This document shows, piece after piece, positions 2,862 to 26,140 of a stretch of DNA of 29,301 nucleotides. Within the stretch, counting starts at the first letter, position 1. Every line of letters starts with the position of its first letter. Position numbers and translations under genes: made by a program. Source of the DNA: Candidatus Fraserbacteria bacterium (lineage in GTDB: Bacteria; Bipolaricaulota; Bipolaricaulia; RBG-16-55-9); NCBI GenBank assembly GCA_037442925.1, contig JBBIPG010000025.1, forward strand, positions 1 through 29,301, given 5' to 3'. The notes under the pieces are model-generated. The model was not told where the DNA came from. It did not search any database and saw only the letters and a list, made by a program, of their open reading frames with translations.

Positions 2862-5495
2862 CTCTTGGACAAGCTCTCCCATGATCTCGCGATACATGCG
2901 CTGCAAGAAGGCGTGACGGTCCTCAAACTTAATTAGGTCACTGCGCCCCTGCATCACGATGTGAAACGCAAAGGGACTAGGATGTGAGCTGATCCGTCCC
3001 TCGATCTCGATCTCCCCGGCACGGATCTCATTCAGAATCTGCTGCGCGTGCGCCACGTCCATCGCATCTTCCATAACTTCGCGATACGCCTCTAGCAGAA
3101 TCGGAAACCGCTCATCCATAGCCTCTACGGCATGTTGCAAGATGATCGCCTTCATCTGCTGCCGCCCCACGGACTTTCTCTGACCCTTGTAGTTCTTCAA
3201 GATCATAAGAGCCCGCGTGGCACAATGGCGGAATCTTCGCTTGAGGATCTCTGTGTTGTCCAGAGCGTTCTTCAGAACAGAACGTACATCACGTTCCTTA
3301 AAGAGATCGAAAGCCGCCATCACCCGCACGCTCCCCTGGTACGCCAAATAGAAGCCGTGATCCGTGATGCCGATCTCGACATCTTTGTCTTCGCGGCGAG
3401 AGATGAGCCAAGCCAGCGCCCGACTCAATGCATCATTCACCCTTCTGCCAAAGAGCGTGTGAAAGATCACCCACGTCTTGATGGGACTCTTCCAGCGCCC
3501 TGGCTCAAGCTCCTCTTGGTAGTATTCAATAAGAATCTTGCGTCGGTGCGGGATTTCAGCATAACGTCGCTGCTCTTTGAAATAACGATAGAGCGACTCG
3601 ACCCCTCGCTCATCAAGATACAGATAGCTCCGAATGAACGACTTGATCTTAGTGGAGCTTTGCTCTTCTGCAAACATCCGGTTGAGTTGTGCTCGAAAGA
3701 GCTGGATGTCCAAAGCCAGATCAAAGCTTAACGGAAGCATCTCCGAGAACCAGGAGGGCACGGTAGGGCTTCGACCGTAGGCTGGATCAACTTGAACCGT
3801 CATGCCCCGTGAATACTTGAATTTGTACGTCTCTCCCCCCAACACAAACACATCGCTCTTGCGCAGCATTTCCAGAAACGACTCTTCAATGCTCCCAATG
3901 CGCCGATCACCCGATTTCACAGTCACGTACGACTCGTCGGGAATGGTGCCCACATTCGTGAGATAGAGCACGCGCGCGAGCCGACCCCGTTTGCCGATAA
4001 TGCCCTTGTCGCGGTCGTAATAGATTTTTGCATAGACGCGGCGATCCTCAAGCGAGGCATATTCACCCGCCAAGTATTCGAGGACTTTCTCAAAGTCTTC
4101 CCGTGAGAGATCCCGATAGTTGTAACTACGGGTGACCAACTCATAGAGATCTTCGACGTGAGAGGGGCCGTCGAGCAAGATGCCGAAGATCTGCTGCGCG
4201 AGCACATCCAGACAATTCTGCGGGATGTGGAGCTGATCGAGCTTATGCTCGACAGCACTCTTTAGCATCACAGCGCACTCCACCAGATCGTCTCGATCCA
4301 TCACGACGATCCGCCCCTTGATCGTATCGTGGAGCTTATGGCCGCTTCGCCCCACTCTCTGAAGCGCGCGGGTGACGCTCTTGGGTGAGCCTAACAGAAT
4401 GACCAGATCCACATAGCCAATGTCGATGCCCAGCTCTAACGATGTGGAGGAAACCACTACCCGCAGATCGCCGCTCTTTAAGCGATTTTCGATCTCCAGC
4501 CGTAGCTCTTTGGAAAGTGAACCATGGTGAGCACCGATCACTTCCGTAAAGCGTGGGTAGCGCTCCTTGAGGAAGTGCACCACACGCTCGGTTCCGGAGC
4601 GGGTGTTCGTGAAGATGAGCGTCGTGCGATGCTCATCGATCAGTCGAGCGAGCAGCTCATAGAGATTGCTGTGCAGCTCTTCTGTGGAACAGTGGATAAA
4701 ATCCTCGACGGGACTTAACACTTTAAGATCAAGCACCTTCTCAAAACGGGCATCAACGATAGAGCAATCGCGCCAGGGATCTTCGCTATCGTGGGCGACC
4801 TCCGCGAGGGAGCTCCCGTACTTACGCCCGACTAAGAACTTGGCCACTTCTTCTAGAGGGCTGATGGTGGCCGAAAGACCCAGACGGCTAAATTCTTTGA
4901 TTTCGCTCAGACGTTCCAGCGAGAGCGAAAGATGCACGCCGCGTTTGTTCTCTGCCAAGGCGTGGACTTCATCGACGATTACCCAACGCACATGCTGAAA
5001 ATGCTTCGCAAAACCCTTGGAGGTCAGGGAAATCGCAAAGGACTCGGGAGTCGTAATCAGAATGTGTGGGGCTCGAAGAAGCATCTGTTGCTTGCGGCGG
5101 GCGGGCGTATCGCCGGTGCGCACGGCCACACGGATGCGCAGATCGCGCCCGGAGAGACGTGTAATTCCTTCTAATGGTTCATTGAGATTCTTCTCGATAT
5201 CGTTGCCCAAGGCTTTCAAGGGAGAGATGTAGACGCAGTAGATGTGGTTCTCCAGCTCGCCTCGCTCAGCCAGAGTCACCAGTTCGCTCAAGATGGCAAG
5301 GAAGGCGCTCAACGTCTTGCCTGAGCCCGTGGGAGCAGAAATCAAGCAATTGACTCCCCGATGCACGTTGGGAATGGCAAATCTCTGGGGAGGGCTGAAG
5401 CGCTCAAAGCGCTCTTGGAACCAGCTTCGCACCCAGGGGTGCAAGAGCTGGTAGAGCGTCTCCTCGTCACAGGGTTCTGTCTGATAGCGAAGCAT
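2835..5495 (-). CDS. lhr: Lhr-family SF2 ATP-dependent helicase (Lhr core)
   Basis: SAPTGSGKT, YISPLKAL, DEVH, LSAT, STSLELGIDIG, QRVGRSGH, winged-helix region with NVGTIPDE, PSWFSE and C-terminal RRFRHCA...SPFA; 886 aa. Confidence 0.93.
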   Translation of the reverse strand: MLRYQTEPCDEETLYQLLHPWVRSWFQERFERFSPPQRFAIPNVHRGVNCLISAPTGSGKTLSAFLAILSELVTLAERGELENHIYCVYISPLKALGNDIEKNLNEPLEGITRLSGRDLRIRVAVRTGDTPARRKQQMLLRAPHILITTPESFAISLTSKGFAKHFQHVRWVIVDEVHALAENKRGVHLSLSLERLSEIKEFSRLGLSATISPLEEVAKFLVGRKYGSSLAEVAHDSEDPWRDCSIVDARFEKVLDLKVLSPVEDFIHCSTEELHSNLYELLARLIDEHRTTLIFTNTRSGTERVVHFLKERYPRFTEVIGAHHGSLSKELRLEIENRLKSGDLRVVVSSTSLELGIDIGYVDLVILLGSPKSVTRALQRVGRSGHKLHDTIKGRIVVMDRDDLVECAVMLKSAVEHKLDQLHIPQNCLDVLAQQIFGILLDGPSHVEDLYELVTRSYNYRDLSREDFEKVLEYLAGEYASLEDRRVYAKIYYDRDKGIIGKRGRLARVLYLTNVGTIPDESYVTVKSGDRRIGSIEESFLEMLRKSDVFVLGGETYKFKYSRGMTVQVDPAYGRSPTVPSWFSEMLPLSFDLALDIQLFRAQLNRMFAEEQSSTKIKSFIRSYLYLDERGVESLYRYFKEQRRYAEIPHRRKILIEYYQEELEPGRWKSPIKTWVIFHTLFGRRVNDALSRALAWLISRREDKDVEIGITDHGFYLAYQGSVRVMAAFDLFKERDVRSVLKNALDNTEILKRRFRHCATRALMILKNYKGQRKSVGRQQMKAIILQHAVEAMDERFPILLEAYREVMEDAMDVAHAQQILNEIRAGEIEIEGRISSHPSPFAFHIVMQGRSDLIKFEDRHAFLQRMYREIMGELVQESVNGSITD

Positions 5496-5496
5496 T

Positions 5497-5937
5497 TCAG
5501 TAACGTGCGGTGAGATGCCAGACAGCCAGATAGATCACTTCTCCGGAGGATACGCTGATCAGCCAGAGTGTGATGGAAACAAAAGTGAGCGTTCTATGTT
5601 CCTGGAAGAACGCTTTCCCTTGGCGAAAGGCACGCGTAGCCAGTAACGCCAAGATGACCAAGCCTACGAACATGAGCAACGAGAGAATTCCATGGAGAGC
5701 GCCCAGCACGCCAACCCAAGTGGCCAGCGGTGCAGGATCGTTCTGGGCGATCACGACTGTCCGTGAGACCATATAACTGATGTTGATGAACAGCTCGAAG
5801 GCTAACGTGCCCCAGAGCCATTTCCACTTCAAGGGGCGCCCCCTCAGATTGCTGATGATAACCGTTAGCACCGCTGTCGTGACGAAGAGTTCAGAGATAG
5901 CCGCAAAGGTACTAAAGTAGTACGGGTTCGATAACAT
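5497..5937 (-). CDS. DUF420-like four-helix membrane protein
   Basis: About four hydrophobic segments, LHGILS and H...LWLISVSSG..IY pattern; GGGGAGG RBS. Confidence 0.55.
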   Translation of the reverse strand: MLSNPYYFSTFAAISELFVTTAVLTVIISNLRGRPLKWKWLWGTLAFELFINISYMVSRTVVIAQNDPAPLATWVGVLGALHGILSLLMFVGLVILALLATRAFRQGKAFFQEHRTLTFVSITLWLISVSSGEVIYLAVWHLTARY

Positions 5938-6029
5938 GACTGTCCTCCCCTACTCCACAGATGGGGTCAGCGAGCCGCAAATGTGCCGTGGCCTGATCTA
6001 CTTTCACTGTACTGTCGAGAGCCATATGC

Positions 6030-6905
6030 TCATTGTACTCTCTCTTTCCACCGTGAGGTAGGTGGTGATGCCGTCTGCCGATCAATCCAATCGCGCAGGG
6101 AATCACCTAGGAAGTTGACTGCCGCTGCTAAGCTGAGAATGGCCATGCCAGGGAAGGTCGCTACCCACCACTGAGTGAATACCTTGACTCCTTCGGCGAC
6201 CATCCTGCCCCACTCCGGTTCCGGTGGCACTGCTCCTAAGCCAAGGAAGCTCAGTCCTGCTAGCGCGATGATGGCGTTGCCCAGATCAAGAGTAGCCAAC
6301 ACGATCATCTGGTCAAGAGCATTGGGTAGGATAGCCCGCAGCAGGATGTAAGAATTGGAAGCGCCCAAGACACGTACGGACTCTACATATTCATTCTGCT
6401 TCAGCTTGAGAACGAGCCCTCTGGCCAAGCGGGCATAAGCGGGCCACCAGGACAACACAAGAGCCAAGCCAGCATTCAGAAGGCTTGGGCCTAGGGCAGT
6501 GGCAATCACCATGGCCAGAATGATCGTCGGGAAAGTTTGGAAAACTTCTGTCAAACCCATGAGCGCATTATCTATGTATCCTCCCCAATACCCCGCTACC
6601 GATCCAATCGCTACACCCACACATGCTCCGAAGATGACGATGATGATGGCCATAGGAATCGAGATCCGCCCTCCATACAAGATACGTGTGAGCAGATCGC
6701 GGCCAAGCTGATCCGTTCCGAGCAGGTGGGCCGCCGATGGAGGCTGCAACCGGCTCTGAAAATCCTGCTGCGTTGCACCATACGGAGTGAGGTACGGAGC
6801 GAGTATTGCCATGATAACCCATCCCAGCAGAATCGCGATGCCCACGATACCCAGCATGTGTCTACGGATCAAATGAAATGCCATGGACTTCTTCTTTTCA
6901 CGCAC
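6030..6905 (-). CDS. Peptide/nickel ABC transporter permease (DppC/OppC-like)
   Basis: HLLGTDQLGRDLLTRILYGGRIS, EAA-like loop EYVESVRVLGAS, LSFLGLGAVPPEPEWG, NFLGDSLRD. GTG start at 6905 after AAGGAG. Confidence 0.92.
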   Translation of the reverse strand: MREKKKSMAFHLIRRHMLGIVGIAILLGWVIMAILAPYLTPYGATQQDFQSRLQPPSAAHLLGTDQLGRDLLTRILYGGRISIPMAIIIVIFGACVGVAIGSVAGYWGGYIDNALMGLTEVFQTFPTIILAMVIATALGPSLLNAGLALVLSWWPAYARLARGLVLKLKQNEYVESVRVLGASNSYILLRAILPNALDQMIVLATLDLGNAIIALAGLSFLGLGAVPPEPEWGRMVAEGVKVFTQWWVATFPGMAILSLAAAVNFLGDSLRDWIDRQTASPPTSRWKERVQ

Positions 6906-6907
6906 AA

Positions 6908-7927
6908 CTAGAGCTCCTTGATACGGGGATCCAGATATGTATAGACGATATCTACAGCTAGATTGACCAGGCTGTAGCTGACTGCGATGACCAATGCAGT
7001 TCCCACAATGGCCGGGAAGTCGAGTTTGCCAGCGGCTTGGAAGGCATAACGACCGATACCGGGCCAAGCGAAGATGACCTCCGTAAGGACTGCCCCAGAC
7101 AGGAGTTGTCCATAGGCAAGCCCGATGATCGTAAGGGGAGCCGTCATGGAGTTCTTCAGGACATGCTGGACGAGGATTTTGAACTCGGCGAGTCCTTTGG
7201 CGCGAGCTGTGCGAACGAAATCCTTCTGTAGAACAGTTAATACTTCCGCACGCGTGACCTGAATCACGAGACCCGTGATGTAACTAGCGAGGACGGTGGC
7301 GGGTAAGACCAGGTGAGAGGCTGCATCCCAAAATATCGTGATCTGCCCCCTAAGCAAGCTATCTAGCATGTAAAGACCGGTAGGACCTTGTGGAGCTACA
7401 AAGCCAATGCTCAGGCGACCCGAGCCGGGGAGCCAATTCAGGCGGAAGTAGAAGAGATAGAGCGAGACTAGGCCGAGCCAAAAGACAGGCGTGGAGACAC
7501 CGAGCAGCGAGATGATCCGCGAGACATGATCCCACGGTCGCCCTTTGGTAATCGCTGAGAGGAGGCCCAGGGGCAGACCGATAAACAGACTCAGAACCAA
7601 GGCAACCGTAGCCAGTTCGATCGTAGCGGGTAGATACTGAGCTAGGTCATTTAATACCGGGCGGCCAGAAGAGATGGACTGCCCTAAATCTCCGCGCATC
7701 AAATTGCTTAGATACTGGATGTATTGTGCCTGAAGTGGTAGATCCAATCCCCACTTGTGTCGAAAAGCAGCCACGATGCTGGGGTTCTCCGAGGCGGTCT
7801 GCCCTAAATTGGCTACCACGGGATCTGTCGGCAACACATGCGAGATGACAAAGAGCAATGTAATGATCCCGAGCAGAAGTAAGCTGAGCCGAATGAATCG
7901 CCTAGCCAAGAATAAGGGCCAATACAT
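6908..7927 (-). CDS. Peptide/nickel ABC transporter permease (DppB/OppB-like)
   Basis: GLDLPL..QY, GDLGQS, PATIELA, DFVRTARAKGL, TEVIFAWPGIG, LDPRI. Confidence 0.95.
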   Translation of the reverse strand: MYWPLFLARRFIRLSLLLLGIITLLFVISHVLPTDPVVANLGQTASENPSIVAAFRHKWGLDLPLQAQYIQYLSNLMRGDLGQSISSGRPVLNDLAQYLPATIELATVALVLSLFIGLPLGLLSAITKGRPWDHVSRIISLLGVSTPVFWLGLVSLYLFYFRLNWLPGSGRLSIGFVAPQGPTGLYMLDSLLRGQITIFWDAASHLVLPATVLASYITGLVIQVTRAEVLTVLQKDFVRTARAKGLAEFKILVQHVLKNSMTAPLTIIGLAYGQLLSGAVLTEVIFAWPGIGRYAFQAAGKLDFPAIVGTALVIAVSYSLVNLAVDIVYTYLDPRIKEL

Positions 7928-7950
7928 AAGGCCACCATTGCAGAGGGTTT

Positions 7951-7994
7951 GGTGGGGCCATAACCATAGGCAACTGTTCTGTTATAGCCCCACC
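7951..7994. repeat. Intercistronic stem-loop between binding-protein and permease genes
   Basis: GGTGGGGCCATAAC / GTTATAGCCCCACC, 13 of 14 positions complementary. Typical position for an mRNA-stabilising or attenuating hairpin. Confidence 0.7.
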
Positions 7995-8005
7995 AGTTGA
8001 GCCTC

Positions 8006-9634
8006 TTACTGCTTATTCACAATGTAGGGATCTACTCTCCATTGCGGGTTGAAGACGTAGCCTTGGACGTTCGCTCGGACTGCTACAGGCAGTGCCGGCT
8101 GGATCAGCGATACGAATGGGCCATTGTCCCGCAGGAGCAGTTGAATCTGGCGGAACAACTCTGACCGTCTTGCACTATCGACAGTGACTTGGACTTGTTC
8201 TGCCAACTGTTTCAGCTCCTGGTAACTGGAGGTATTGCTCTCCACGCTCCAGTTGGTCCGCTTGTCATAGATCCCACCGGGCAGGAACGCCGTGTAGTTG
8301 AGGGCATCAAGGAAGTCTGGAGTCCAGAATGAGATGAAGAAGGGAATCTGTCCGGCCCTCAAGCGGGTAAAGAAGGCGTCTACTTGTGTCGGGGTCAACT
8401 GGACCTTGATGCCCACTTCAGCGAGATCGGCCTGCACTTTCTGCGCTAATACATCGAAGTCGATGCCGCCGAAGGTGAAGCCACCGGGATACTCCAGAGG
8501 GATCGAGAAACCCTGGGCAAAGCCTGCTTGCTGAAGCAGACTGCGAGCCCTCTCAAGGTCCCGCTGGGGCGCGAAACTCGCATCGAGAGCTCCGGCAATG
8601 CCCACGGGTATGATCGTGGCAGGGGTCAGACTCCCGGTTCCTCCGAGGCTGTCGATCCCCGGATAGTCCAGGGCATGGCGGATCGCTTGCTCGACTTCCA
8701 CGCGATTGACTGTGCCGCCAGTTAGCGATGGGTCTTTATTGACGCCGAGAAAGATGGTGATCAAGGGGCTTGCAGGGATGACGCGGACCGCGGCATTACT
8801 CTTAAGCTGCTCTACTTGATCAGCTGTGATGTCCAGCGCGATGTCGATGTCTCCCTTCTCGAGAGTAAGACTCTGCACGCCCGCATCAGGTATGTTGCGC
8901 AAGATGTATTGCGCTAATGGAGCTGGCTCGCGCCAAGAGTTCGGATTGCGTTGCAGGACAACTTCAGAGCGGAGATCCGTGCTGACCAAGACGTAAGGCC
9001 CTGTACCAGCAGAATGGCTGTTGAGGAAACTCTCGGCACGATCGGTCTGGTCGGCGTCAGGTCCGCTGGTGCCACCCTGGGCAATCAAGGTCTTGCTATC
9101 GAGTATGGCGAAGTTGCCCACGGTGAGCTTGCTCAAGAGCGCTGGGTCAGGTTGATTCAGCTTCAGCACCACCGTGGCAGGATCAAGAGCCTCGACGGAC
9201 TGAATGGAATCCGCAAGGAACGAGGCAGGGCCTTTCAGTCCCTTGAAACGCTCGATGCTCCAGGCTACGTCAGCGGCTGTGAGTGGATTGCCGCTGGAGA
9301 AGCGAACCCCATCTCTCAGTGTGAAGGTGTAAGTCAGGCCATCGGCCGCGACCTCCCAGGATTTCGCCAGTTGTGGAACGACGTCACCATCTCCGTTGTC
9401 AGGGAGGGTGACCAGCGTCTCGTACAGGGCCTTATTGGTGAGAATAGCCGTCAGCTCGAATGAGCGTCCGGGGTCGAGGGTCTTTAAGTTGAACGATGTG
9501 CCTACGATGAGCGTCTGATCGCGCGAGATCCCTTGGCTAATGGCCCCTGTGCTTAGGGCGAGCGTTAGCGTTACAGCCGTGACGTATAGAAGCCACTTTC
9601 TCCAGTTGACGCCGAGTAGCTTGTTGCTGAGCAT
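8006..9634 (-). CDS. ABC transporter substrate-binding protein, family 5 (DppA/OppA-like)
   Basis: Signal peptide, TLDP, LYETLV, LAKSWEV..DGLTYTFTLRDGVRFSSGNPLTAADV, GTGPY; AAAGGAG RBS. Confidence 0.95.
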   Translation of the reverse strand: MLSNKLLGVNWRKWLLYVTAVTLTLALSTGAISQGISRDQTLIVGTSFNLKTLDPGRSFELTAILTNKALYETLVTLPDNGDGDVVPQLAKSWEVAADGLTYTFTLRDGVRFSSGNPLTAADVAWSIERFKGLKGPASFLADSIQSVEALDPATVVLKLNQPDPALLSKLTVGNFAILDSKTLIAQGGTSGPDADQTDRAESFLNSHSAGTGPYVLVSTDLRSEVVLQRNPNSWREPAPLAQYILRNIPDAGVQSLTLEKGDIDIALDITADQVEQLKSNAAVRVIPASPLITIFLGVNKDPSLTGGTVNRVEVEQAIRHALDYPGIDSLGGTGSLTPATIIPVGIAGALDASFAPQRDLERARSLLQQAGFAQGFSIPLEYPGGFTFGGIDFDVLAQKVQADLAEVGIKVQLTPTQVDAFFTRLRAGQIPFFISFWTPDFLDALNYTAFLPGGIYDKRTNWSVESNTSSYQELKQLAEQVQVTVDSARRSELFRQIQLLLRDNGPFVSLIQPALPVAVRANVQGYVFNPQWRVDPYIVNKQ

Positions 9635-9946
9635 TATGTGTCTCCTTTCACATCTCAGTTGAAGTCGAATGAGTCGATTAACTTACTAACGATGTAAGCT
9701 GGCAACCTCTTAAGTTATGGCAAGCTACGGGGAGAGGGATGTGGTTAAGATCTACGGGATCTTAAAGACCACATCCCACAGTACAGGAGCAATGGTGCGT
9801 ATATCCGTATCTATGAACTGTTAGAGAAGAAATAGCCGGCAGGCGGTACGGCGAGTGTGTTACCTTAGGGGAGACAGACAACACTCTGGCTCTAACAAAG
9901 GCGATCACCCTTCATTGGCAGACCTCCCTTTATCTAAAGTGGGCGT

Positions 9947-9975
9947 ATCATAGCACAGAGAATTCGGAGTGTCAA
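9947..9975 (-). promoter_or_regulatory. sigma70 promoter reading toward the ABC operon
   Basis: Minus strand TTGACA-N17-TATGAT, with an extended -10 TG. Confidence 0.75.
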
Positions 9976-9990
9976 GGGCCCGAATTGACT

Positions 9991-10048
9991 CAACAAAAAA
10001 GCACTCGAAGCGGAGCTTCCTGCAAGTTCCGATGGACTGAAAGTGTGC
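9991..10048 (-). terminator. Probable intrinsic terminator after the rlpA-like gene
   Basis: Minus strand GCAC...CGGAACTT-GCAGG-AAGCTCCG...GTGC followed by TTTTTTGTTG. Confidence 0.5.
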
Positions 10049-10049
10049 A

Positions 10050-10415
10050 TTACGGCCAGTGCACGACTTTTAGGCCCACGCGCGCTGTGCCCTTCTGAAC
10101 GATGCCCAACTCCTGAGCAGCGGCATACGAGAGATCGATGATCCGGCCAGGGATGAACGGCCCGCGGTCATTGATGCGCACGATGACGCTACGGCCGGTA
10201 TCGAGATCGACCACCCTGACAACTGTATTGAAGGGGAGCGACTTATGGGCTGCCGTCATCTGGTTCATGTCGTAGATTTCACCGCTGGACGTCCTCTTGC
10301 CGTGGAAGCCGGGGCCATACCACGATGCAATGCCAACTTGGTCGTAGCTGAGATATTTCACTACGCCCACGATGAGGAACAGCGCCGCAAGACTTGCGAT
10401 CAAGATCTCTCTCAT
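10050..10415 (-). CDS. rlpA: RlpA-family (DPBB) lytic transglycosylase, short form without SPOR domain
   Basis: GIASWYGPGFHGKRTSSGE.YDM..MTAAHKSLPF...VRINDRGPF..GRIIDLS. Confidence 0.92.
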   Translation of the reverse strand: MREILIASLAALFLIVGVVKYLSYDQVGIASWYGPGFHGKRTSSGEIYDMNQMTAAHKSLPFNTVVRVVDLDTGRSVIVRINDRGPFIPGRIIDLSYAAAQELGIVQKGTARVGLKVVHWP

Positions 10416-10632
10416 CTGGAATCACGCCCAAGAAAGTGAGATTTGCTCAGCGATTGTAGTGTGAAGTGAGAGGCTGTGCAAATGCTGACAAGGTTTCACA
10501 AAAGCAGAGTGTGATATAATTACTGCCAAGGAGTCGGGCGGGAAGGAGCGATGTGGTTGCACTTGCCATCCGGCACAGTAATTACGGTTATGGATGTGGA
10601 TATAATCAATGAACCAAAGGAAGGTGAACCGT

Positions 10633-11013
10633 ATGAAAGAGTTTCGCCTCTCACTACCCCATCGACCGGCAGAATTGGCCAATGTGGCAGAAGCCATAGC
10701 GCGCAAGGGTGTCAATCTCAAGTCCGTTGCTGGCCTTACGGAGGGCAACAAGGCGACTATCGCTCTGGTGGGCCATGACGTGAACGCCCTAAGACAAGCT
10801 CTCCAGGAAGCTCGGATTCGCTTTGAGGAGGTCGAGCTTCTCACCGTGGAATTGGAGGACCAGCCAGGACAGTTGGCCGACTTGACCGCCAAGCTCAGTA
10901 CGGCAGGCGTCAATATCACGTCCCTTTACGTGTTGGGAAAGGAGGGCAGCAAAGTCCAGTTGGGGTTGACGACAGATCAGATCCCGAAGGCAAAGAAGGT
11001 CTTGGGGCAGTAA
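10633..11013 (+). CDS. Tandem ACT-domain protein
   Basis: LPHRPAELA...GVNL and LEDQPGQLA...GVNITSLY (two ACT repeats); AAGGAAGGTG RBS. Confidence 0.85.
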   Translation: MKEFRLSLPHRPAELANVAEAIARKGVNLKSVAGLTEGNKATIALVGHDVNALRQALQEARIRFEEVELLTVELEDQPGQLADLTAKLSTAGVNITSLYVLGKEGSKVQLGLTTDQIPKAKKVLGQ

Positions 11014-11023
11014 ACTTCGATCT

Positions 11024-11485
11024 TCAAGCCGGTTTACTCGAGCGCGCCCGCCGTCGAGTCGTTCGGCTAGTGTGAAGTTTTGAGCGATCTGCCGCCACCT
11101 CGGCAAGCGAAAGATTTGCCATCAGATCCCAGACTTTGGGCCGGGCCTCTCGCCAGACATCATGGAGCATACAAGGGTTTTCATCCGAGCAATGGTTGCT
11201 CCAGAAGATGCAGCGCTCAAAGACTTCGGGGCCTTCAATAGCTTCGACGATCTCTTTGATGCGAATCTCTCTGGCAAGCTTGGCTAGACTGTAACCACGT
11301 TCCTTGCCCCGGAAGGAACGAAGGATGCCGTGAACGGTGAGCTTGCGAAAGATCTTGGCGAGGAACATCTGGGGAAGGCCCACAGCTTCTGCCACTTGAC
11401 TGAGCTGCAAGATGGTGCCCGGCGGTTGCTGGGCCAGATAGGCCAATCCCATTAAGCCGTACTGGCTTTCCTTCGACAATTTCAT
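11024..11485 (-). CDS. Rrf2-family transcriptional regulator with Fe-S ligand motif
   Basis: MKLSKESQYGL, FLAKIFRKL...SFRGKERGYSLAK, IVEAIEG, and C-x6-C-x5-C-x2-H (CIFWSNHCSDENPCMLH). Confidence 0.92.
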   Translation of the reverse strand: MKLSKESQYGLMGLAYLAQQPPGTILQLSQVAEAVGLPQMFLAKIFRKLTVHGILRSFRGKERGYSLAKLAREIRIKEIVEAIEGPEVFERCIFWSNHCSDENPCMLHDVWREARPKVWDLMANLSLAEVAADRSKLHTSRTTRRRARSSKPA

Positions 11486-11498
11486 GCTGCTTCCCAGA

Positions 11499-13208
11499 CT
11501 ATCGAATGGGCCACACCTGCGCAAGCTGAAGCATGTTCACGACCATAACGAGGATGAAGAACGCCAAGAAGCTGAACACCAGGACTAACGTGCCGGGCAT
11601 CTTGTGTTCCGCCGGAGCCGGGCTCGTGGGCACCGCTGTGACGACGGGAGGTTCTTGAGAGGCCGGAATCTTCTTGCCCATGAGCAACGAAGCCACCGCG
11701 ATCCCGATGTACATGGCCCCTCCCACCACGGAGATGAGCGCCCCCATGCCAAAGACGGCCAAGGCAATGTACGCTGTGATCGGAAAGGTCGCCACGACGG
11801 GAGCTCCGCTGTACGTGATGTCCGCAACCCTGCGGGGCACACCGAGCCAGCCCGCTGCCATCATTCCTGCAATGAGTAGTAGGAGCCCAATGGCGTAGAC
11901 GTAGGGTTGGAGCGCCGCCAGTCGCTTCCCCACGAGTTCTCTACGGGCGATGAGCGGGATGAGATAGTATGTTAAGCCCATGAAGGCCAGAGTCGTACCG
12001 GCAACGACAGTCGCATGGAAGTGTCCCGGGACAGCCAGCGTGTTGTGCCAGATCATGTTGATCTGCTCATGTCCCAAGGCCACACCCGTTGTCCCTCCCA
12101 GAAACCCGAAAAGAACCATGGATAGTGCCAGAGACGAGAACCCCGGCTCGCGCCAGGGTGCTTTCCTCAGCCATTCGAACACCCCTCGGGTGTAGCCCTT
12201 CGCCCGCTGCGCTATTTCAACCCCAGCCGGAATCGAGAACGCGTGAATCATGCTTCCTAAAACGGCCAGATACATGGCATAACTCGTGTTGAAGAGCTTA
12301 AACGCAATGGATATCCCCGGGTCCACAAGAAGATGGTGCACCGAGCCCAAATTGATGAAGAGGATGTAGAGCACGAACGCAAAGCGGCTCAGTCTCTCAT
12401 TCAGAGGCTTGGCCCCTGTGGTCATGAAAGCCAGTAGATACCAGATCGATACCATGGCCGCGAGGTTGATTTGCTGAGAGGCGTGCCCCAGGGACCAGAA
12501 GTTCAGCCGGTAGACTTCCGGGTCAAGGCTTGTGAGTCCCAGAGACCAGAAGAAGGCAGGCACGAACGTGATCACCCCGCCCAGCAGGGTGAAGGTAGCG
12601 ATGACGGCCGCGGTGATGAACCCGAAGGTCACCAAGGGCACGGAGTTTGTGTAGCGCCCTTCGGCCTTGGCCACTATGACATTGGCGAAGAATAGGCCCA
12701 CAGCGATCAGAGCGCCGACGGCAAACAAGATGGTGCCCAAATAGAACAGGGGATGAGCTCTTAAGGGGACATAGGAGCTGAACATCACATCGCCCTGCCC
12801 CATGAAGATCATGATGTTCGTAAGAGTGGCACCACCTAGCATCAAGCCGTATGCAAACCAGGCAAGGCGAGGCTGAACCAAGCGGGCGTTGAGAACGATG
12901 GCACTGCCAAAGTATAGACCCGCCACTTCGAAGAAGATGATCCAGTAGATGAGCATGTTCATGCCATGAGCTGTGAGGAACCGGTAGAACAGTTCCGGCG
13001 AGGAGGAGAGTAGCCCCACGGTTGGCCAGCGCGTGAGGGCCACCAAGAGCGCCATCACTCCCCCGATGAGCAAGAAAACTACGGCTGTAACCGCATTGGT
13101 CAGGACGAGACGTTCTGCCGCCGCATGGATTCTTAGCCCCGTGACCGGACAGACGCGAGAGACGAAATCCCGTGCACGTCCGAGCGATAGCGCTTCCGAC
13201 GTCATCAC
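11499..13208 (-). CDS. Heme-copper oxidoreductase subunit I, B-family-derived; probable eNOR-type nitric-oxide reductase
   Basis: Multi-pass membrane protein with His ligands in LTAHG, GHASQQ, SVHHLL and PGHFHAT. The HPxVY Tyr is replaced by Gln. Confidence 0.8.
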   Translation of the reverse strand: MMTSEALSLGRARDFVSRVCPVTGLRIHAAAERLVLTNAVTAVVFLLIGGVMALLVALTRWPTVGLLSSSPELFYRFLTAHGMNMLIYWIIFFEVAGLYFGSAIVLNARLVQPRLAWFAYGLMLGGATLTNIMIFMGQGDVMFSSYVPLRAHPLFYLGTILFAVGALIAVGLFFANVIVAKAEGRYTNSVPLVTFGFITAAVIATFTLLGGVITFVPAFFWSLGLTSLDPEVYRLNFWSLGHASQQINLAAMVSIWYLLAFMTTGAKPLNERLSRFAFVLYILFINLGSVHHLLVDPGISIAFKLFNTSYAMYLAVLGSMIHAFSIPAGVEIAQRAKGYTRGVFEWLRKAPWREPGFSSLALSMVLFGFLGGTTGVALGHEQINMIWHNTLAVPGHFHATVVAGTTLAFMGLTYYLIPLIARRELVGKRLAALQPYVYAIGLLLLIAGMMAAGWLGVPRRVADITYSGAPVVATFPITAYIALAVFGMGALISVVGGAMYIGIAVASLLMGKKIPASQEPPVVTAVPTSPAPAEHKMPGTLVLVFSFLAFFILVMVVNMLQLAQVWPIR

Positions 13209-13212
13209 CCGT

Positions 13213-13737
13213 TCACTCCTTTACGAGGATCTTGCCCGTCATCTGGTGATGGGCAAGCCCGCAGTATTCGTTGCAGACAATGGTGTATTCCCCGGCCTCG
13301 CTGGGTGTGAGAATGAGCACATAGTCATAGCCGGGGACGATCTGGAAATTCATGTTCACGGGTTGGAGGGAAAACCCGTGGTTGACGTCGACCGAAGAAA
13401 CGTGAAGGCGGTACGTCTTCCCCTTCGTAAGCTCGAGGATGGGCATCCACTGGAACTGCATGGCCAAGAGATAGACATCCCCTTCGGGGGGACGGACGAT
13501 GGGAATGCCTGCTTCCTCACCGACTTGATAGCGAGCGATGAAATCGTTCGTGAGTTGGCTAAATCGCTCCGGCGAAACCCGATAGGCCAAGTGAGGGGTG
13601 TTCTGTCGGGCCAAAAGATGCCAGAGGGGCATGGTGGAGAAGAGCGCAACGATGAAGACAAGGCTCACCCCCAGCCACAGGCGTTCCTGTCTTCCTAGGC
13701 GTTTCCACCAGACACGTTCCGGCGGCGTAAGAGCCAT
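13213..13737 (-). CDS. CuA-containing subunit II
   Basis: One TM helix, then DVNHGFS...CNEYCGLAHHQM (CuA ligands); AAGGAGGAG RBS. Confidence 0.93.
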   Translation of the reverse strand: MALTPPERVWWKRLGRQERLWLGVSLVFIVALFSTMPLWHLLARQNTPHLAYRVSPERFSQLTNDFIARYQVGEEAGIPIVRPPEGDVYLLAMQFQWMPILELTKGKTYRLHVSSVDVNHGFSLQPVNMNFQIVPGYDYVLILTPSEAGEYTIVCNEYCGLAHHQMTGKILVKE

Positions 13738-13759: not shown

Positions 13760-14239
13760 TTACTTCAAGCCTTTCATGTACTCGATCAGCGTTTCCAGCT
13801 CCACCGACGAGATTCGTCCTTGGTAATTGGGCATCGCCCCTACTGGGTATCCACGGACGACTTTCGCGTTCGGGTTGAGAATGGATTCCCGAAGATACGC
13901 TTCATCGGCCGTGATGGTCGACCCGTCTGCCAGAGGGATAGAAGCTCCAAAGAGTCCCTTCCAGGTGGGGCCGAATCTCTCCGAGCCATCGGTGGAGTGG
14001 CAGCCCAAGCAGCCGAGGTTGCGAACCAATTCCTCTGCGGATCTTTGAGAGGCCTGTGGCATCGTCGCCGACTCCGCCGCCGGGAGTGGCGGGAGGCTGC
14101 CGATATCCATCAGCCCCCACACGATGTAAATCAGAAAGGGAACCGCGACACCTACCAAAAGTAGAAGGAACATGTCATCAAAGAGGACTTGAATGAGAGG
14201 GACCGGCTCAGCCATCTGGCGTTGCTCGTCCTTGCGCAC
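13760..14239 (-). CDS. Membrane-anchored monoheme cytochrome c (small-subunit-like TM segment fused to cytochrome c)
   Basis: TM segment LFDDMFLLLLVGVAVPFLIYIVWGLMDI, then CLGCH, GPTWKGLFG, YLRESILNP, MP. GTG start after AAAGGAGG. Confidence 0.88.
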   Translation of the reverse strand: MRKDEQRQMAEPVPLIQVLFDDMFLLLLVGVAVPFLIYIVWGLMDIGSLPPLPAAESATMPQASQRSAEELVRNLGCLGCHSTDGSERFGPTWKGLFGASIPLADGSTITADEAYLRESILNPNAKVVRGYPVGAMPNYQGRISSVELETLIEYMKGLK

Positions 14240-14312
14240 CTGGGTGCCTCCTTTGTGTGTGACGCTCCATCTGCTAATGGATGCAAAGGACCGTTTTACT
14301 CCAGTGAGGAAT

Positions 14313-14341
14313 ACTCTAACACATCTGAGGTGGGTTGTCAA
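14313..14341 (-). promoter_or_regulatory. sigma70 promoter of the heme-copper operon
   Basis: Minus strand TTGACA-N17-TAGAGT, with TG just upstream of the -10. Confidence 0.65.
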
Positions 14342-23551: not shown

Positions 23552-26140
23552 TCAGCGCAGCACCATCATCTTGCGAATGGTGCTCTGCCAGATCTCTCCC
23601 GAGTAGCCGCGCACGATGACGACGTAGAGATAGACTCCGTTGGCGAGCGGTCGACCACTTTGATCCAGAGGCATCCAGCGCAAGGAAGATCCAGCTGATT
23701 CGGCAGCGAAGCGCTTTCTGCCCTCGAGATCAAATCCCTCTACCCGGACGGAGGCAATGCCTTGGCCTACCACACGAAGTTGCCAAAGAGTATGATCTAT
23801 CGGGTATGCGCTCACGGATCGGATCTCTAAGGGCATGACGGTTGCCTTGGCTTGCGGTTTCAGTGTGTAGGGTATCTGCTGGCCCTTGGGGTCCAAGAGA
23901 TATTCGATGTGCAGCTCAGGAGCGGCGTCAACTACTTTCGTCTGAAAGATGATCTGCAAGGCATCTCGTTCTCGAGAGCCCCGGCCCGGCGGAGCTAACA
24001 TGACAAATCTCGCCTCGCCCCGCGTATTGTCGATCTTAGACGCGAGGAGCTTGTAGTCGTTTCGGCCTTGCATCGATCGGATCTGCTGCAATTGAGGATC
24101 GAACCGTATGCGTCCTTGTAGACCTCCCACGGAATGGCCGTTGGAGTCGATCTGCACGATGAGGCGTGACGAGTCAAGAATAGAAGTGAAGCTGACTTGA
24201 GCTAGCGGCTCTGAGGGGCGAAGGAATCTCAGTAAACTCTCGAGGAAAGACCTCTGTGGTTTGTTGGATAAGGCGGCTGCGCTCGGGCCCTCGAACGTAA
24301 TGGCTAGCTCAGCGATCCTGGCCACATCGGAAGAATCTAGATCATCACAGGTAGGTACGAGATTGGGATTTGTCTGGCGAGGTGCCCCATCGGAGATGAC
24401 CACATCAGCGACGGACTTCTGCTCGTTACTGAGGGCAAAGGGACTTCCTGAATCTTCGGGGATCTCTTGAGGCGGATCTGCCAAGCAGTATGTGACGATA
24501 GCACTTGCCAGCCAGAGCGCGTCGCGCACGGTGGGTCGGCTATCTCGGTCGATATCCCCCGGGAACAGCAGCGTAACGCTTCCCGAGACCACGATCACTT
24601 CGGATGTGATATCCATGCCGTTAGCATCCGTAATGCTCTCTGCCTGAAGCAGAAGGATGCTCCGCTGACCCGGCTGACCTGACTTGGACTTGGAAATCTT
24701 CAGGGAGGCTACAGTTGCATCTGTTTTCGCCGAGGGCATTTGAGAAACATTCAGCGCAAAACGGAGCAGTCCGGCGCGATTGTCCTTAAGAAGAGTGGAA
24801 GCTTGATAGGAATTCTGCCCCACAACATCATCGATCTGGATGACGTTGGGATCGAACTGAATGGAAGCCGTTTGAGCTCCTAGGCCCGGCTGAGGGAAGG
24901 CAGAGATCTCTATGGGCACTTCGCTACCTGCGATCTGCATGTCCGGAACACGTAGGACACCCTGGCCTATGATGATAACTAGGCTGGTCTGAAGGGAAGG
25001 CGCTGCGCTGGGATCAATGGGGAACCCCGAGGGTTCCTCTACCATCGTGAAGATGATCTTGAGGTGTATGGTGCGCCCCTTCATCGCACCCAGTGCTACT
25101 TTGGCCTTGATAGCATAGTCTTTGCAGGACTCGCCCGCACCAGGATCGGTGATGCTCGCTGTCGTAACGAGCGGAATTCCCGATCCACCACGATTGAAGT
25201 TCGAATTGAGACTGCCACCGCTTATCTGCCCTAGTGATGAATTGGTGGTAAGATCCACCAGACTAAAAGAATCAAAGTCGCTGATGACCGCTGTGCCCAG
25301 AGGCCCTTGAACTAACGTCAGCTCCTTTAAGAGTAAATCATGGCCGTTCGCATCGTGATCACAGACGCGGAAGCGGGCTACTGTGTCCTCACCGCCGGTC
25401 TTTATGGAAGCAGGAATGCCGCCGGAGTTCTCCTCAATGCGATTGATTCCTCCGTTAAAGACGAAGTCCGGTATGCTGTCTGTGATTGAGTTGGTGAAGG
25501 TAGTAAGAAGAGGAGGGCTCCCAGCGCTCTCCTCAAACTCGACAGTTACCCGCAGTCGCACCGTGTGATTCTGAGAAGTGTTCAGCAAGGTGCTTGTGTC
25601 AGCAACACGTACCGCGACTTGGAAGGTCTTCTCACCATCATCTGGGATCACTCGTGACCCAAATGACGGAGCAGGCGGCGGGACGGCGAGATTGGGGTCA
25701 CAGACCGCTTCGAAGGCGACATTTGGATTGAAACTCGCTACGGGGGTATCTACAGGGGCAATTGCTTGTCCCGCTTCATCCAGACATGCAACCTCAATAA
25801 TATCCAGATCCGTGGCTGTTCCCAAATTTTCTATCATCATAAATGTAATGATGACGTCGCTACTGTCATTCGCCAGGGGATCGACATCCTTGATCTTGAA
25901 TTGGAAGACCTCCTTCCCATCTCCTATGGAGAAGGATGAGGTTTGAACCATGGGGGCGCCCATGCCGGGTTCGAGGATCAGACCCGTGGGCGGGACCAAG
26001 GGAACTTCTGTCATCTGCACCTGTCCGTAGCCCGTGATAGATGGCAGAAGGGCTCCCACGAACACCCAGATCAGCAACCCGTAAAGACACTGACGTCTTC
26101 TGTTCTCCGGATTCACATATCGGAGATGGCTGAGCCTCAT
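23552..26140 (-). CDS. Large secreted/surface protein: repeated beta domains, cohesin-like and dockerin-like modules, C-terminal sorting-like domain
   Basis: Signal peptide; IQFDPNVIQI and IRFDPQLQQI cohesin-like segments; GDIDRDSRPTVRDAL dockerin-like loop; terminal LANGVYLYVV...RKMMVLR. Confidence 0.7.
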   Translation of the reverse strand: MRLSHLRYVNPENRRRQCLYGLLIWVFVGALLPSITGYGQVQMTEVPLVPPTGLILEPGMGAPMVQTSSFSIGDGKEVFQFKIKDVDPLANDSSDVIITFMMIENLGTATDLDIIEVACLDEAGQAIAPVDTPVASFNPNVAFEAVCDPNLAVPPPAPSFGSRVIPDDGEKTFQVAVRVADTSTLLNTSQNHTVRLRVTVEFEESAGSPPLLTTFTNSITDSIPDFVFNGGINRIEENSGGIPASIKTGGEDTVARFRVCDHDANGHDLLLKELTLVQGPLGTAVISDFDSFSLVDLTTNSSLGQISGGSLNSNFNRGGSGIPLVTTASITDPGAGESCKDYAIKAKVALGAMKGRTIHLKIIFTMVEEPSGFPIDPSAAPSLQTSLVIIIGQGVLRVPDMQIAGSEVPIEISAFPQPGLGAQTASIQFDPNVIQIDDVVGQNSYQASTLLKDNRAGLLRFALNVSQMPSAKTDATVASLKISKSKSGQPGQRSILLLQAESITDANGMDITSEVIVVSGSVTLLFPGDIDRDSRPTVRDALWLASAIVTYCLADPPQEIPEDSGSPFALSNEQKSVADVVISDGAPRQTNPNLVPTCDDLDSSDVARIAELAITFEGPSAAALSNKPQRSFLESLLRFLRPSEPLAQVSFTSILDSSRLIVQIDSNGHSVGGLQGRIRFDPQLQQIRSMQGRNDYKLLASKIDNTRGEARFVMLAPPGRGSRERDALQIIFQTKVVDAAPELHIEYLLDPKGQQIPYTLKPQAKATVMPLEIRSVSAYPIDHTLWQLRVVGQGIASVRVEGFDLEGRKRFAAESAGSSLRWMPLDQSGRPLANGVYLYVVIVRGYSGEIWQSTIRKMMVLR

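Follow-up and report, generated by a model that had tools for sequence, protein, structure and literature searches.

A predicted eNOR-type nitric oxide reductase with a fused cytochrome c in a Candidatus Fraserbacteria genome

The window analysed here (29,301 nucleotides of a Candidatus Fraserbacteria contig, C25) encodes subunits I and II of an enzyme with the fold of a ba3-type oxidase. As subunit I has Gln in place of the Tyr that forms the His-Tyr cross-link, the locus raises the question of whether the enzyme reduces oxygen or nitric oxide. Both open reading frames described in the original prediction are present (13208-11499, minus strand, 569 aa; 13737-13213, minus strand, 174 aa). They lie in a group of four genes that very probably encodes an eNOR-family heme-copper enzyme, likely to reduce NirK-made NO to N2O and so likely to carry out the last nitrate-to-N2O step, in a host that also encodes an aa3 oxygen reductase. 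The genes, with the helix VI motif, are as follows.

11499..13208, minus strand: eNOR subunit I, COX1 fold, 569 aa from GTG (568 aa from ATG at 13205)
12462..12488, minus strand: helix VI motif GHASQQINL of subunit I; H242 codon at 12485-12483, Q246 codon (cross-link Tyr position) at 12473-12471
13213..13737, minus strand: eNOR subunit II, 174 aa, one N-terminal membrane helix and a CuA cupredoxin
13760..14239, minus strand: small third subunit-cytochrome c fusion, 159 aa from GTG at 14239, behind the ribosome site AAAGGAGG
11024..11485, minus strand: Rrf2-family regulator, 153 aa from ATG at 11485, 13 nt past the subunit I stop

The fusion gene and the regulator gene come in addition to the two genes of the original prediction.

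Subunit I and the eNOR family

Subunit I is a COX1-fold protein (Pfam; E-value: 8e-65). As predicted, it keeps all six His metal ligands (residues 81, 242, 291, 292, 396 and 398). Helix VI reads WSLG-H242-ASQ-Q246-INL, and this stretch aligns opposite the His...Tyr motif of Thermus ba3 and Aquifex 7DEG; the cross-link position in GHASQQINL is thus held by Q246, and the replacement of the Tyr is confirmed. The channel residues are Q246, Y257, S319 and H322, with Val253 at the Y244 position. In the alignment of 292 non-query rows (near-duplicates included), Gln246 is found in all 272 homologues with at least 40% identity and gives way to Tyr or Phe in the 20 homologues below 40%. Because 272/272 of the closer homologues share it, the Gln is neither chance nor a sequencing error. 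Y257, S319, H322, H242, H291, H292 and H396 are each present in the same 272/272, and position 253 is Val or Ile in every one. At position 398, 248 of them have His and 24 have Lys, which corresponds to the His/Lys low-spin site described for some eNORs (PMC11214002).

The structure model of subunit I (pLDDT 91.7) has ba3 oxidases as its top structural matches. The nearest solved relatives are B-family oxidases, Thermus thermophilus ba3 (1XME) and Aquifex 7DEG, and the fold is shared with these B1 enzymes at a TM-score of about 0.78-0.80. Six His ligands, a CuA-bearing subunit II, a K-like channel and a small third helix (predicted here) are common to both types. The window enzyme differs from ba3 in sequence (~25% identity), in the replacement of Y237 by Gln, T312 by His and Y244 by Val, and in belonging to a separate clade.

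A subunit I phylogeny had been named as a check in the original prediction. The tree comprises 57 rows hand-picked from 293 aligned, and its long branches meet near the root (a warning given by the tool). The query falls inside a 44-row Gln clade (support 100/99); nine Tyr-bearing B1 rows (100/100) and two A-family rows stand apart. The Gln clade includes L042 and L051; by name, their genomes correspond to entries scored ENOR=1 and B1=0 in Dataset S6 of PMC11214002, and the species of origin of three B1 rows are scored there as B1 and not as ENOR. When the longest branches were left out (23-row tree), a clade uniting the query with B1 was rejected (p-AU 2.2e-5), and subunit I is accordingly placed outside the Tyr-containing B1 rows.

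The reference enzyme of the family is the eNOR of Rhodothermus marinus DSM 4252 (WP_012842681.1, Dataset S4 of PMC11214002), with which the Gln at the Tyr site is shared. For this enzyme, Dataset S1 gives Q245, Y256, S318, H321 and E(II)21 and leaves the Y244 equivalent blank; the Gln that the original prediction named for it is the Q-245 listed there against Y-237 of ba3 (PMC11214002). Compared by these listed residues, R. marinus positions 245, 256, 318 and 321 correspond to 246, 257, 319 and 322 of the window enzyme (offset +1), the channel-entry Glu in subunit II and the CuA subunit are also shared, and the query agrees with eNOR at each of the five listed positions and in the missing sixth. 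The R. marinus sequence was neither among the 120 matches listed in the protein searches nor in the genome scan or plasmid search. Among the Dataset S6 rows listed, neither Thermomicrobium roseum nor Deinococcus psychrotolerans was found.

Other assignments were excluded by residues. The helix VI Tyr required of a B1-family ba3 O2 reductase is replaced by Q246. A bNOR or sNOR would need Asn at the Tyr position, as listed in Dataset S1 (PMC11214002), and Thr at the T312 position, where Gln246 and His322 are found here. An nNOR, cNOR or qNOR would need Glu at the Tyr position (listed for nNOR in the same dataset), and a gNOR would need an active-site His to Asp change and a subunit II lacking the CuA ligands; the window enzyme retains every His and CuA ligand. 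For bNOR, sNOR, gNOR and nNOR the exclusion is by residues only, the tree being without references for these families and for R. marinus.

Because of the residue match, the 100/99 clade and the rejection of B1, the enzyme can be classified as a new member of the already described eNOR family, and the sequence data support the eNOR-type assignment made in the original prediction. The family itself is published and common: it was proposed in 2008 and characterised in 2021/2024, with 547 GTDB genomes counted in 2024 (PMC11214002). Gln at the helix VI Tyr site has been used as an ingroup criterion, and the frequent mislabelling of Gln-type enzymes as cytochrome c oxidase has been remarked upon (PMC8756737). 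Most database names of the homologues, among the matches listed, are indeed cytochrome c oxidase. Such a name, given by standard pipelines, would hide the likely completion of the nitrate-to-N2O pathway by an uncultured host, and the annotation is corrected here. The R. marinus eNOR reduces NO (kcat 0.68/s) and does not reduce O2, and the function of the family is known from this one purified enzyme of low turnover (PMC11214002). By analogy with this single characterised relative, the window enzyme would reduce NO and lack O2 activity.

Subunit II and the cytochrome c-bearing third subunit

The subunit II gene stands directly upstream of the subunit I gene. Its product has a full CuA site (H120, C155, E157, C159, H163 and M166), as had been stated, and the six ligands are invariant in 82/82 aligned rows (81 of 135 prepared relatives plus the query). 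E18 is likewise invariant in the 82 rows and matches the channel-entry Glu E(II)21.

The product of 13760..14239 has one membrane helix, predicted to be subunit-IIa-like, followed by a C-terminal monoheme cytochrome c with a CLGCH motif and a candidate Met ligand in GAMP. A small third-subunit gene is found at 149 of 164 related loci (147/148 where the upstream DNA suffices). At 147 of the 149, the protein stops at most 20 residues past the helix; the other two have long C-terminal fusions, which are the same cytochrome c in L010 and a cupredoxin in L011. Full-length matches to the small subunit-cytochrome c protein are limited to the source genome (G000) and G093 among 35 genomes of the order, and domains like the fused cytochrome c occur in 26 of the 35, many beside oxidase genes. 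The subunit IV-like gene of the aa3 operon of the source genome (G000:C27:7869-8582, minus strand) also has a C-terminal cytochrome c, 43% identical to that of the eNOR operon.

The closest PDB entry to the cytochrome domain is 1w2l, the caa3 cytochrome c domain of R. marinus (E-value: 1.4e-22), which is thus its closest solved relative. The cytochrome c domain of caa3 is a tethered donor to CuA. That domain belongs to subunit II in caa3, whereas in the window it is attached to the small third subunit of a predicted NO reductase. The R. marinus eNOR differs from the window enzyme in this fusion, and the operon described here is also without ctaA and ctaB.

Residues 8-58 of the third subunit were predicted to form a complex with subunit I (0.83 versus 0.00 for the best control), with runs agreeing in at least 98% of contacts and a partner pLDDT of at least 77; the mark used is reached by 116/157 solved pairs and 2/215 mismatched pairs. 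This score may stem from likeness to solved ba3 complexes that contain subunit IIa. In the prediction, the third-subunit helix is parallel to helix V. In the standard topology, a helix so oriented has its C-terminus outside, on the CuA side, and the fused cytochrome c is therefore predicted to lie outside on that side.

No description of this operon or of the cytochrome c-small subunit fusion was found among the papers listed on eNOR, nitrite or NO reductases or denitrification in Bipolaricaulota, Fraserbacteria or Acetothermia, and no paper was found on subunit IIa, NO reductase and a cytochrome c domain together. The fusion and the host lineage are small extensions of the known eNOR family. 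A more elaborate reading, to which an even chance is given, is that of a self-wired "c-eNOR" with four redox sites, in which the conserved one-helix third subunit carries a caa3-type cytochrome c as tethered donor, an NO-sensing Rrf2 repressor regulates its own operon, and the host represents a Bipolaricaulota lineage for which no eNOR was listed before. The L011 lineage would have fused a cupredoxin independently at the same place, and the third subunit would in this reading be a docking arm for electron donors. An eNOR with a built-in cytochrome c donor would be a convenient construct for studying electron entry and possible proton pumping.

Regulator, candidate promoter and related loci

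The regulator has the conserved Rrf2 domain (Pfam; E-value: 2e-31) and passes the Rrf2 superfamily model (108 bits, cut-off 73). It falls below the cut-offs for both NsrR (58 bits versus 182, NF008240) and IscR (67 bits versus 208). C92, C99, C105 and H108 are likely to be its Fe-S ligand set. An Rrf2 gene is found at the equivalent place in 2/164 related loci, L010 and L097. In L097 (a Thermus thermophilus plasmid, 4866-10684), the genes after a His/Lys-type eNOR are Rrf2, DUF542 and cupin genes resembling nsrRST, and a NirK-like gene lies close by; the eNOR seems to occupy the place of cNOR in the published nic cluster. The Rrf2 protein of this plasmid (140 aa) is 32% identical to that of the window over 90 aa. 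NsrR(Th) of the Thermus nic cluster is an Rrf2 protein with three C-terminal Cys encoded beside an NO reductase, as here; in contrast to that cluster, the window operon has no nsrS or nsrT, and its operator candidate differs from the published palindrome (PMC5748679). That the window protein senses NO is a guess from context, namely from the genes of nsrRST size and kind that come after the eNOR on the Thermus plasmid. Two features were found upstream of the operon.

14313..14341, minus strand: sigma-70-like promoter candidate TTGACA-N17-TAGAGT, upstream of the four-gene operon, 10/12 consensus match
14297..14313, no strand: imperfect palindrome TAYTCC-N5-GGARTA, covering the -10/+1 region of the promoter candidate

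The promoter pattern was found at 5 sites versus 1.5 +/- 1.3 in shuffles. The palindrome is, speculatively, a putative operator for the Rrf2 protein. Its pattern was derived from 14297..14313 itself, and its single occurrence in the genome hence carries no weight as evidence; no such palindrome was seen ahead of the related L111 operon. The FNR box has three exact matches in the genome, none of them near the eNOR, nar or nirK genes.

Four of 184 genomes of the phylum match subunit I at E-values of 1e-20 or lower. Three carry the Gln enzyme (G000, G093 and G102), and the fourth has a Tyr-bearing B1 enzyme. The G093 locus is the same DNA as the window and so is no second case. The eNOR of G102 groups with Chloroflexota and Acidobacteriota proteins, apart from the query, and because of this clustering separate acquisitions of the two eNORs are suggested. 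None of the 8 Bipolaricaulota rows among the Dataset S6 rows listed (PMC11214002) has an eNOR. The nearest named related locus is in a Ca. Fraserbacteria MAG (L010, 67%), so that the poorly cultured phylum of the original prediction is probably right; as Fraserbacteria belong to the Bipolaricaulota, the host is likely a member of that phylum. A metagenome scan gave no relative above 61% identity. In L010 and L111 the order is nirK, small subunit-cytochrome c, subunit II, subunit I and Rrf2, with ctaB divergent; nirK is the first gene of the eNOR operon in these two and is inside the fetched flanks at just 2/164 related loci.

A second COX1-like open reading frame is present at 12 of the 164 loci, one being an ordinary A-family oxidase; none is present in this window. 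At some eNOR loci the second COX1-fold gene encodes 460-480 aa (L011:6755-8182, L017:6803-8239, L019:6807-8258, L069, L085 and L087) and at L046 975 aa; the equivalents of H81, H242, H396 and H398 are kept in these second proteins and the helix VII His pair is absent. L094 (G093:C27:150692-152251) and L106 (an Azospirillum plasmid) encode COX1-fold proteins with Tyr at the H291 and H396 positions, whose long branches join the tree as sister to the eNOR clade. A second COX1 match of ~460-500 codons is found in 16/35 genomes of the order (two were tested, and both are cbb3-like). The source genome is without such a match, and its second COX1 gene is the eNOR.

Genome context and role in the host

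The source genome (2.07 Mb in 86 contigs, 94% complete) has two COX1-fold genes, the eNOR and an A-family oxidase; as there are only these two, no cNOR or qNOR was found. The A-family aa3 oxidase on C27 has the motif GHPEVY and scores 647.9 bits, just below the TIGR02891 cut-off of 670.75. Its operon also encodes subunits II-IV, CtaA (128.7 bits, above the cut-off) and a CtaB-like protein, and a Sco-like gene is present in the genome. The original prediction had expected a shift from aerobic respiration to NO reduction. This claim is unsupported because the same genome encodes the A-family oxidase with adjacent ctaA and ctaB; the eNOR would supplement aerobic respiration, adding partial denitrification, instead of replacing it.

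Contig C2, separate from the eNOR operon on C25, carries narG, narH, narJ, narI and two narK genes, followed directly by nirK. NarG (1335 bits, cut-off 1084) and NarH (649 bits, cut-off 524) are above their cut-offs, and NarI (90 bits) is under its cut-off of 106. NirK scores 346 bits versus a cut-off of 296 and has an extra N-terminal cupredoxin and an HSIDLH loop. For NirS, the source genome gave 12 short propeller fragments (best 35.7 bits) and no full cd1. For NosZ, TIGR04246 gave only CuA/propeller fragments of at most 37 bits in the source genome (this model scores above 830 bits in 2/11 genomes, the source genome not among them), the clade III model gave a best score of 79.5 versus 700, and PF18764 matched neither the source genome nor a positive control. 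The absence of NosZ and NirS is that from a 94% complete assembly. Thus, of the genes that had been named for a genome search, nirK, ctaA and a ctaB-like gene are present, whereas NirS and NosZ were not found. Because no NosZ is detectable, the host would be a net source of N2O.

The R. marinus host likewise has an A-family oxidase and nitrate and nitrite reductases; it differs from the present host, which has NarG and not NapA and in which no NosZ or NirS was found (PMC11214002). Heme a synthesis requires O2 (PMC11214002). Given this requirement, the host is likely a facultative aerobe that respires oxygen and, where oxygen is low, converts nitrate to N2O by denitrification.

Further redox genes were noted in the same genome. 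A large multiheme cytochrome cluster at G000:C19:5900-23200 (3 to 18 CxxCH per cytochrome) also includes genes for a molybdopterin enzyme, a Rieske protein and cytochrome b. An octaheme cytochrome gene (G000:C2:65905-67386), weakly similar to HAO/hydrazine dehydrogenase (65 bits versus a cut-off of 900), lies upstream of a formate dehydrogenase operon, and its product could share in nitrite or NO chemistry. A partial match to cytochrome bd subunit I (59 bits, covering positions 2-235 of the 418 in the model) lies at G000:C6:29531-30235 (plus strand), surrounded by cupredoxin-like and cytochrome c genes; it is not clearly a bd oxidase.

A working scheme for the enzyme, with an electron path modelled on R. 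marinus eNOR and on the fold of ba3, would run as follows. Cytochrome c would donate electrons to CuA, from where they would reach the low-spin heme (H81/H398) and then the site of the high-spin heme (H396) and the metal (H242, H291 and H292). There, 2 NO + 2 H+ + 2 e- would be converted to N2O + H2O; because this is a two-electron reaction, no His-Tyr cofactor would be needed. Cytoplasmic protons are predicted to enter via E18(II)-S319-H322-Y257-Q246, and this uptake would conserve energy. According to the prediction, the small subunit lies against helices V-VII and its C-terminus points outward, which would hold the cytochrome c close to CuA in the manner of caa3. The hemes would be a-type, made in trans by the O2-dependent CtaA and CtaB encoded on C27, a dependence that would link the enzyme to growth at low oxygen. 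Control of the operon would lie with the Rrf2 protein, which would respond to NO or Fe-S status.

The enzyme could be an eNOR by family and yet serve here mainly in NO detoxification, for example by shielding the aa3 oxidase, uncoupled from growth on nitrate. This would suit an operon that is unlinked to nar and nirK and has its own Rrf2 regulator, the patchy occurrence of eNOR in the phylum (3/184 genomes), and the case of G102, a genome of the same family as the host (85% complete) that has an eNOR and no nirK match at E-values of 1e-40 or lower. It is nevertheless unlikely to be the main role, given that the genome encodes the whole path from nitrate to NO and has no second HCO-type NO reductase, that the putative proton channel is intact and that nirK heads the eNOR operon in L010. 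Detoxification and denitrification are not mutually exclusive.

It is highly improbable that the enzyme is a B-family oxygen reductase in which the cross-link has moved to another Tyr, as in the C family. The best structural match is the ba3 fold, the commonest database name is cytochrome c oxidase, and Y310 and Tyr281 (helix VII, 10 residues before the His pair) are invariant in 272/272 homologues. However, in two cbb3-like proteins of relatives (L139 and L140) the Tyr is 6 residues before the helix VII His pair, and this C-family position holds Ile285 in the window enzyme and Ile or Leu in 272/272 homologues. The rejected B1 placement and the aa3 oxidase already encoded in the genome also argue against a moved Tyr, as do reports on the family: according to PMC11214002, the Tyr has not migrated in these families and eNOR shows no O2 activity, and its reference 37, by title, describes a Magnetospirillum member without cytochrome c oxidase activity. 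That the catalytic residue was lost by decay to an inactive oxidase is hardly credible, since the subunit I reading frame has no stops or frameshifts, its five departures from >90%-conserved columns (an N-terminal residue, a two-residue insert, V/I and S/A) are trivial, the Gln is fixed across phyla, and the promoter candidate, ribosome sites and four genes are intact.

Two further features of the window were noted. An 862-aa protein is encoded at 23552-26140 (minus strand), its sole Pfam match being one cohesin domain (E-value: 2e-11), and the C-terminal part of a Mutator-family transposase is encoded at the contig start (27-659, plus strand).
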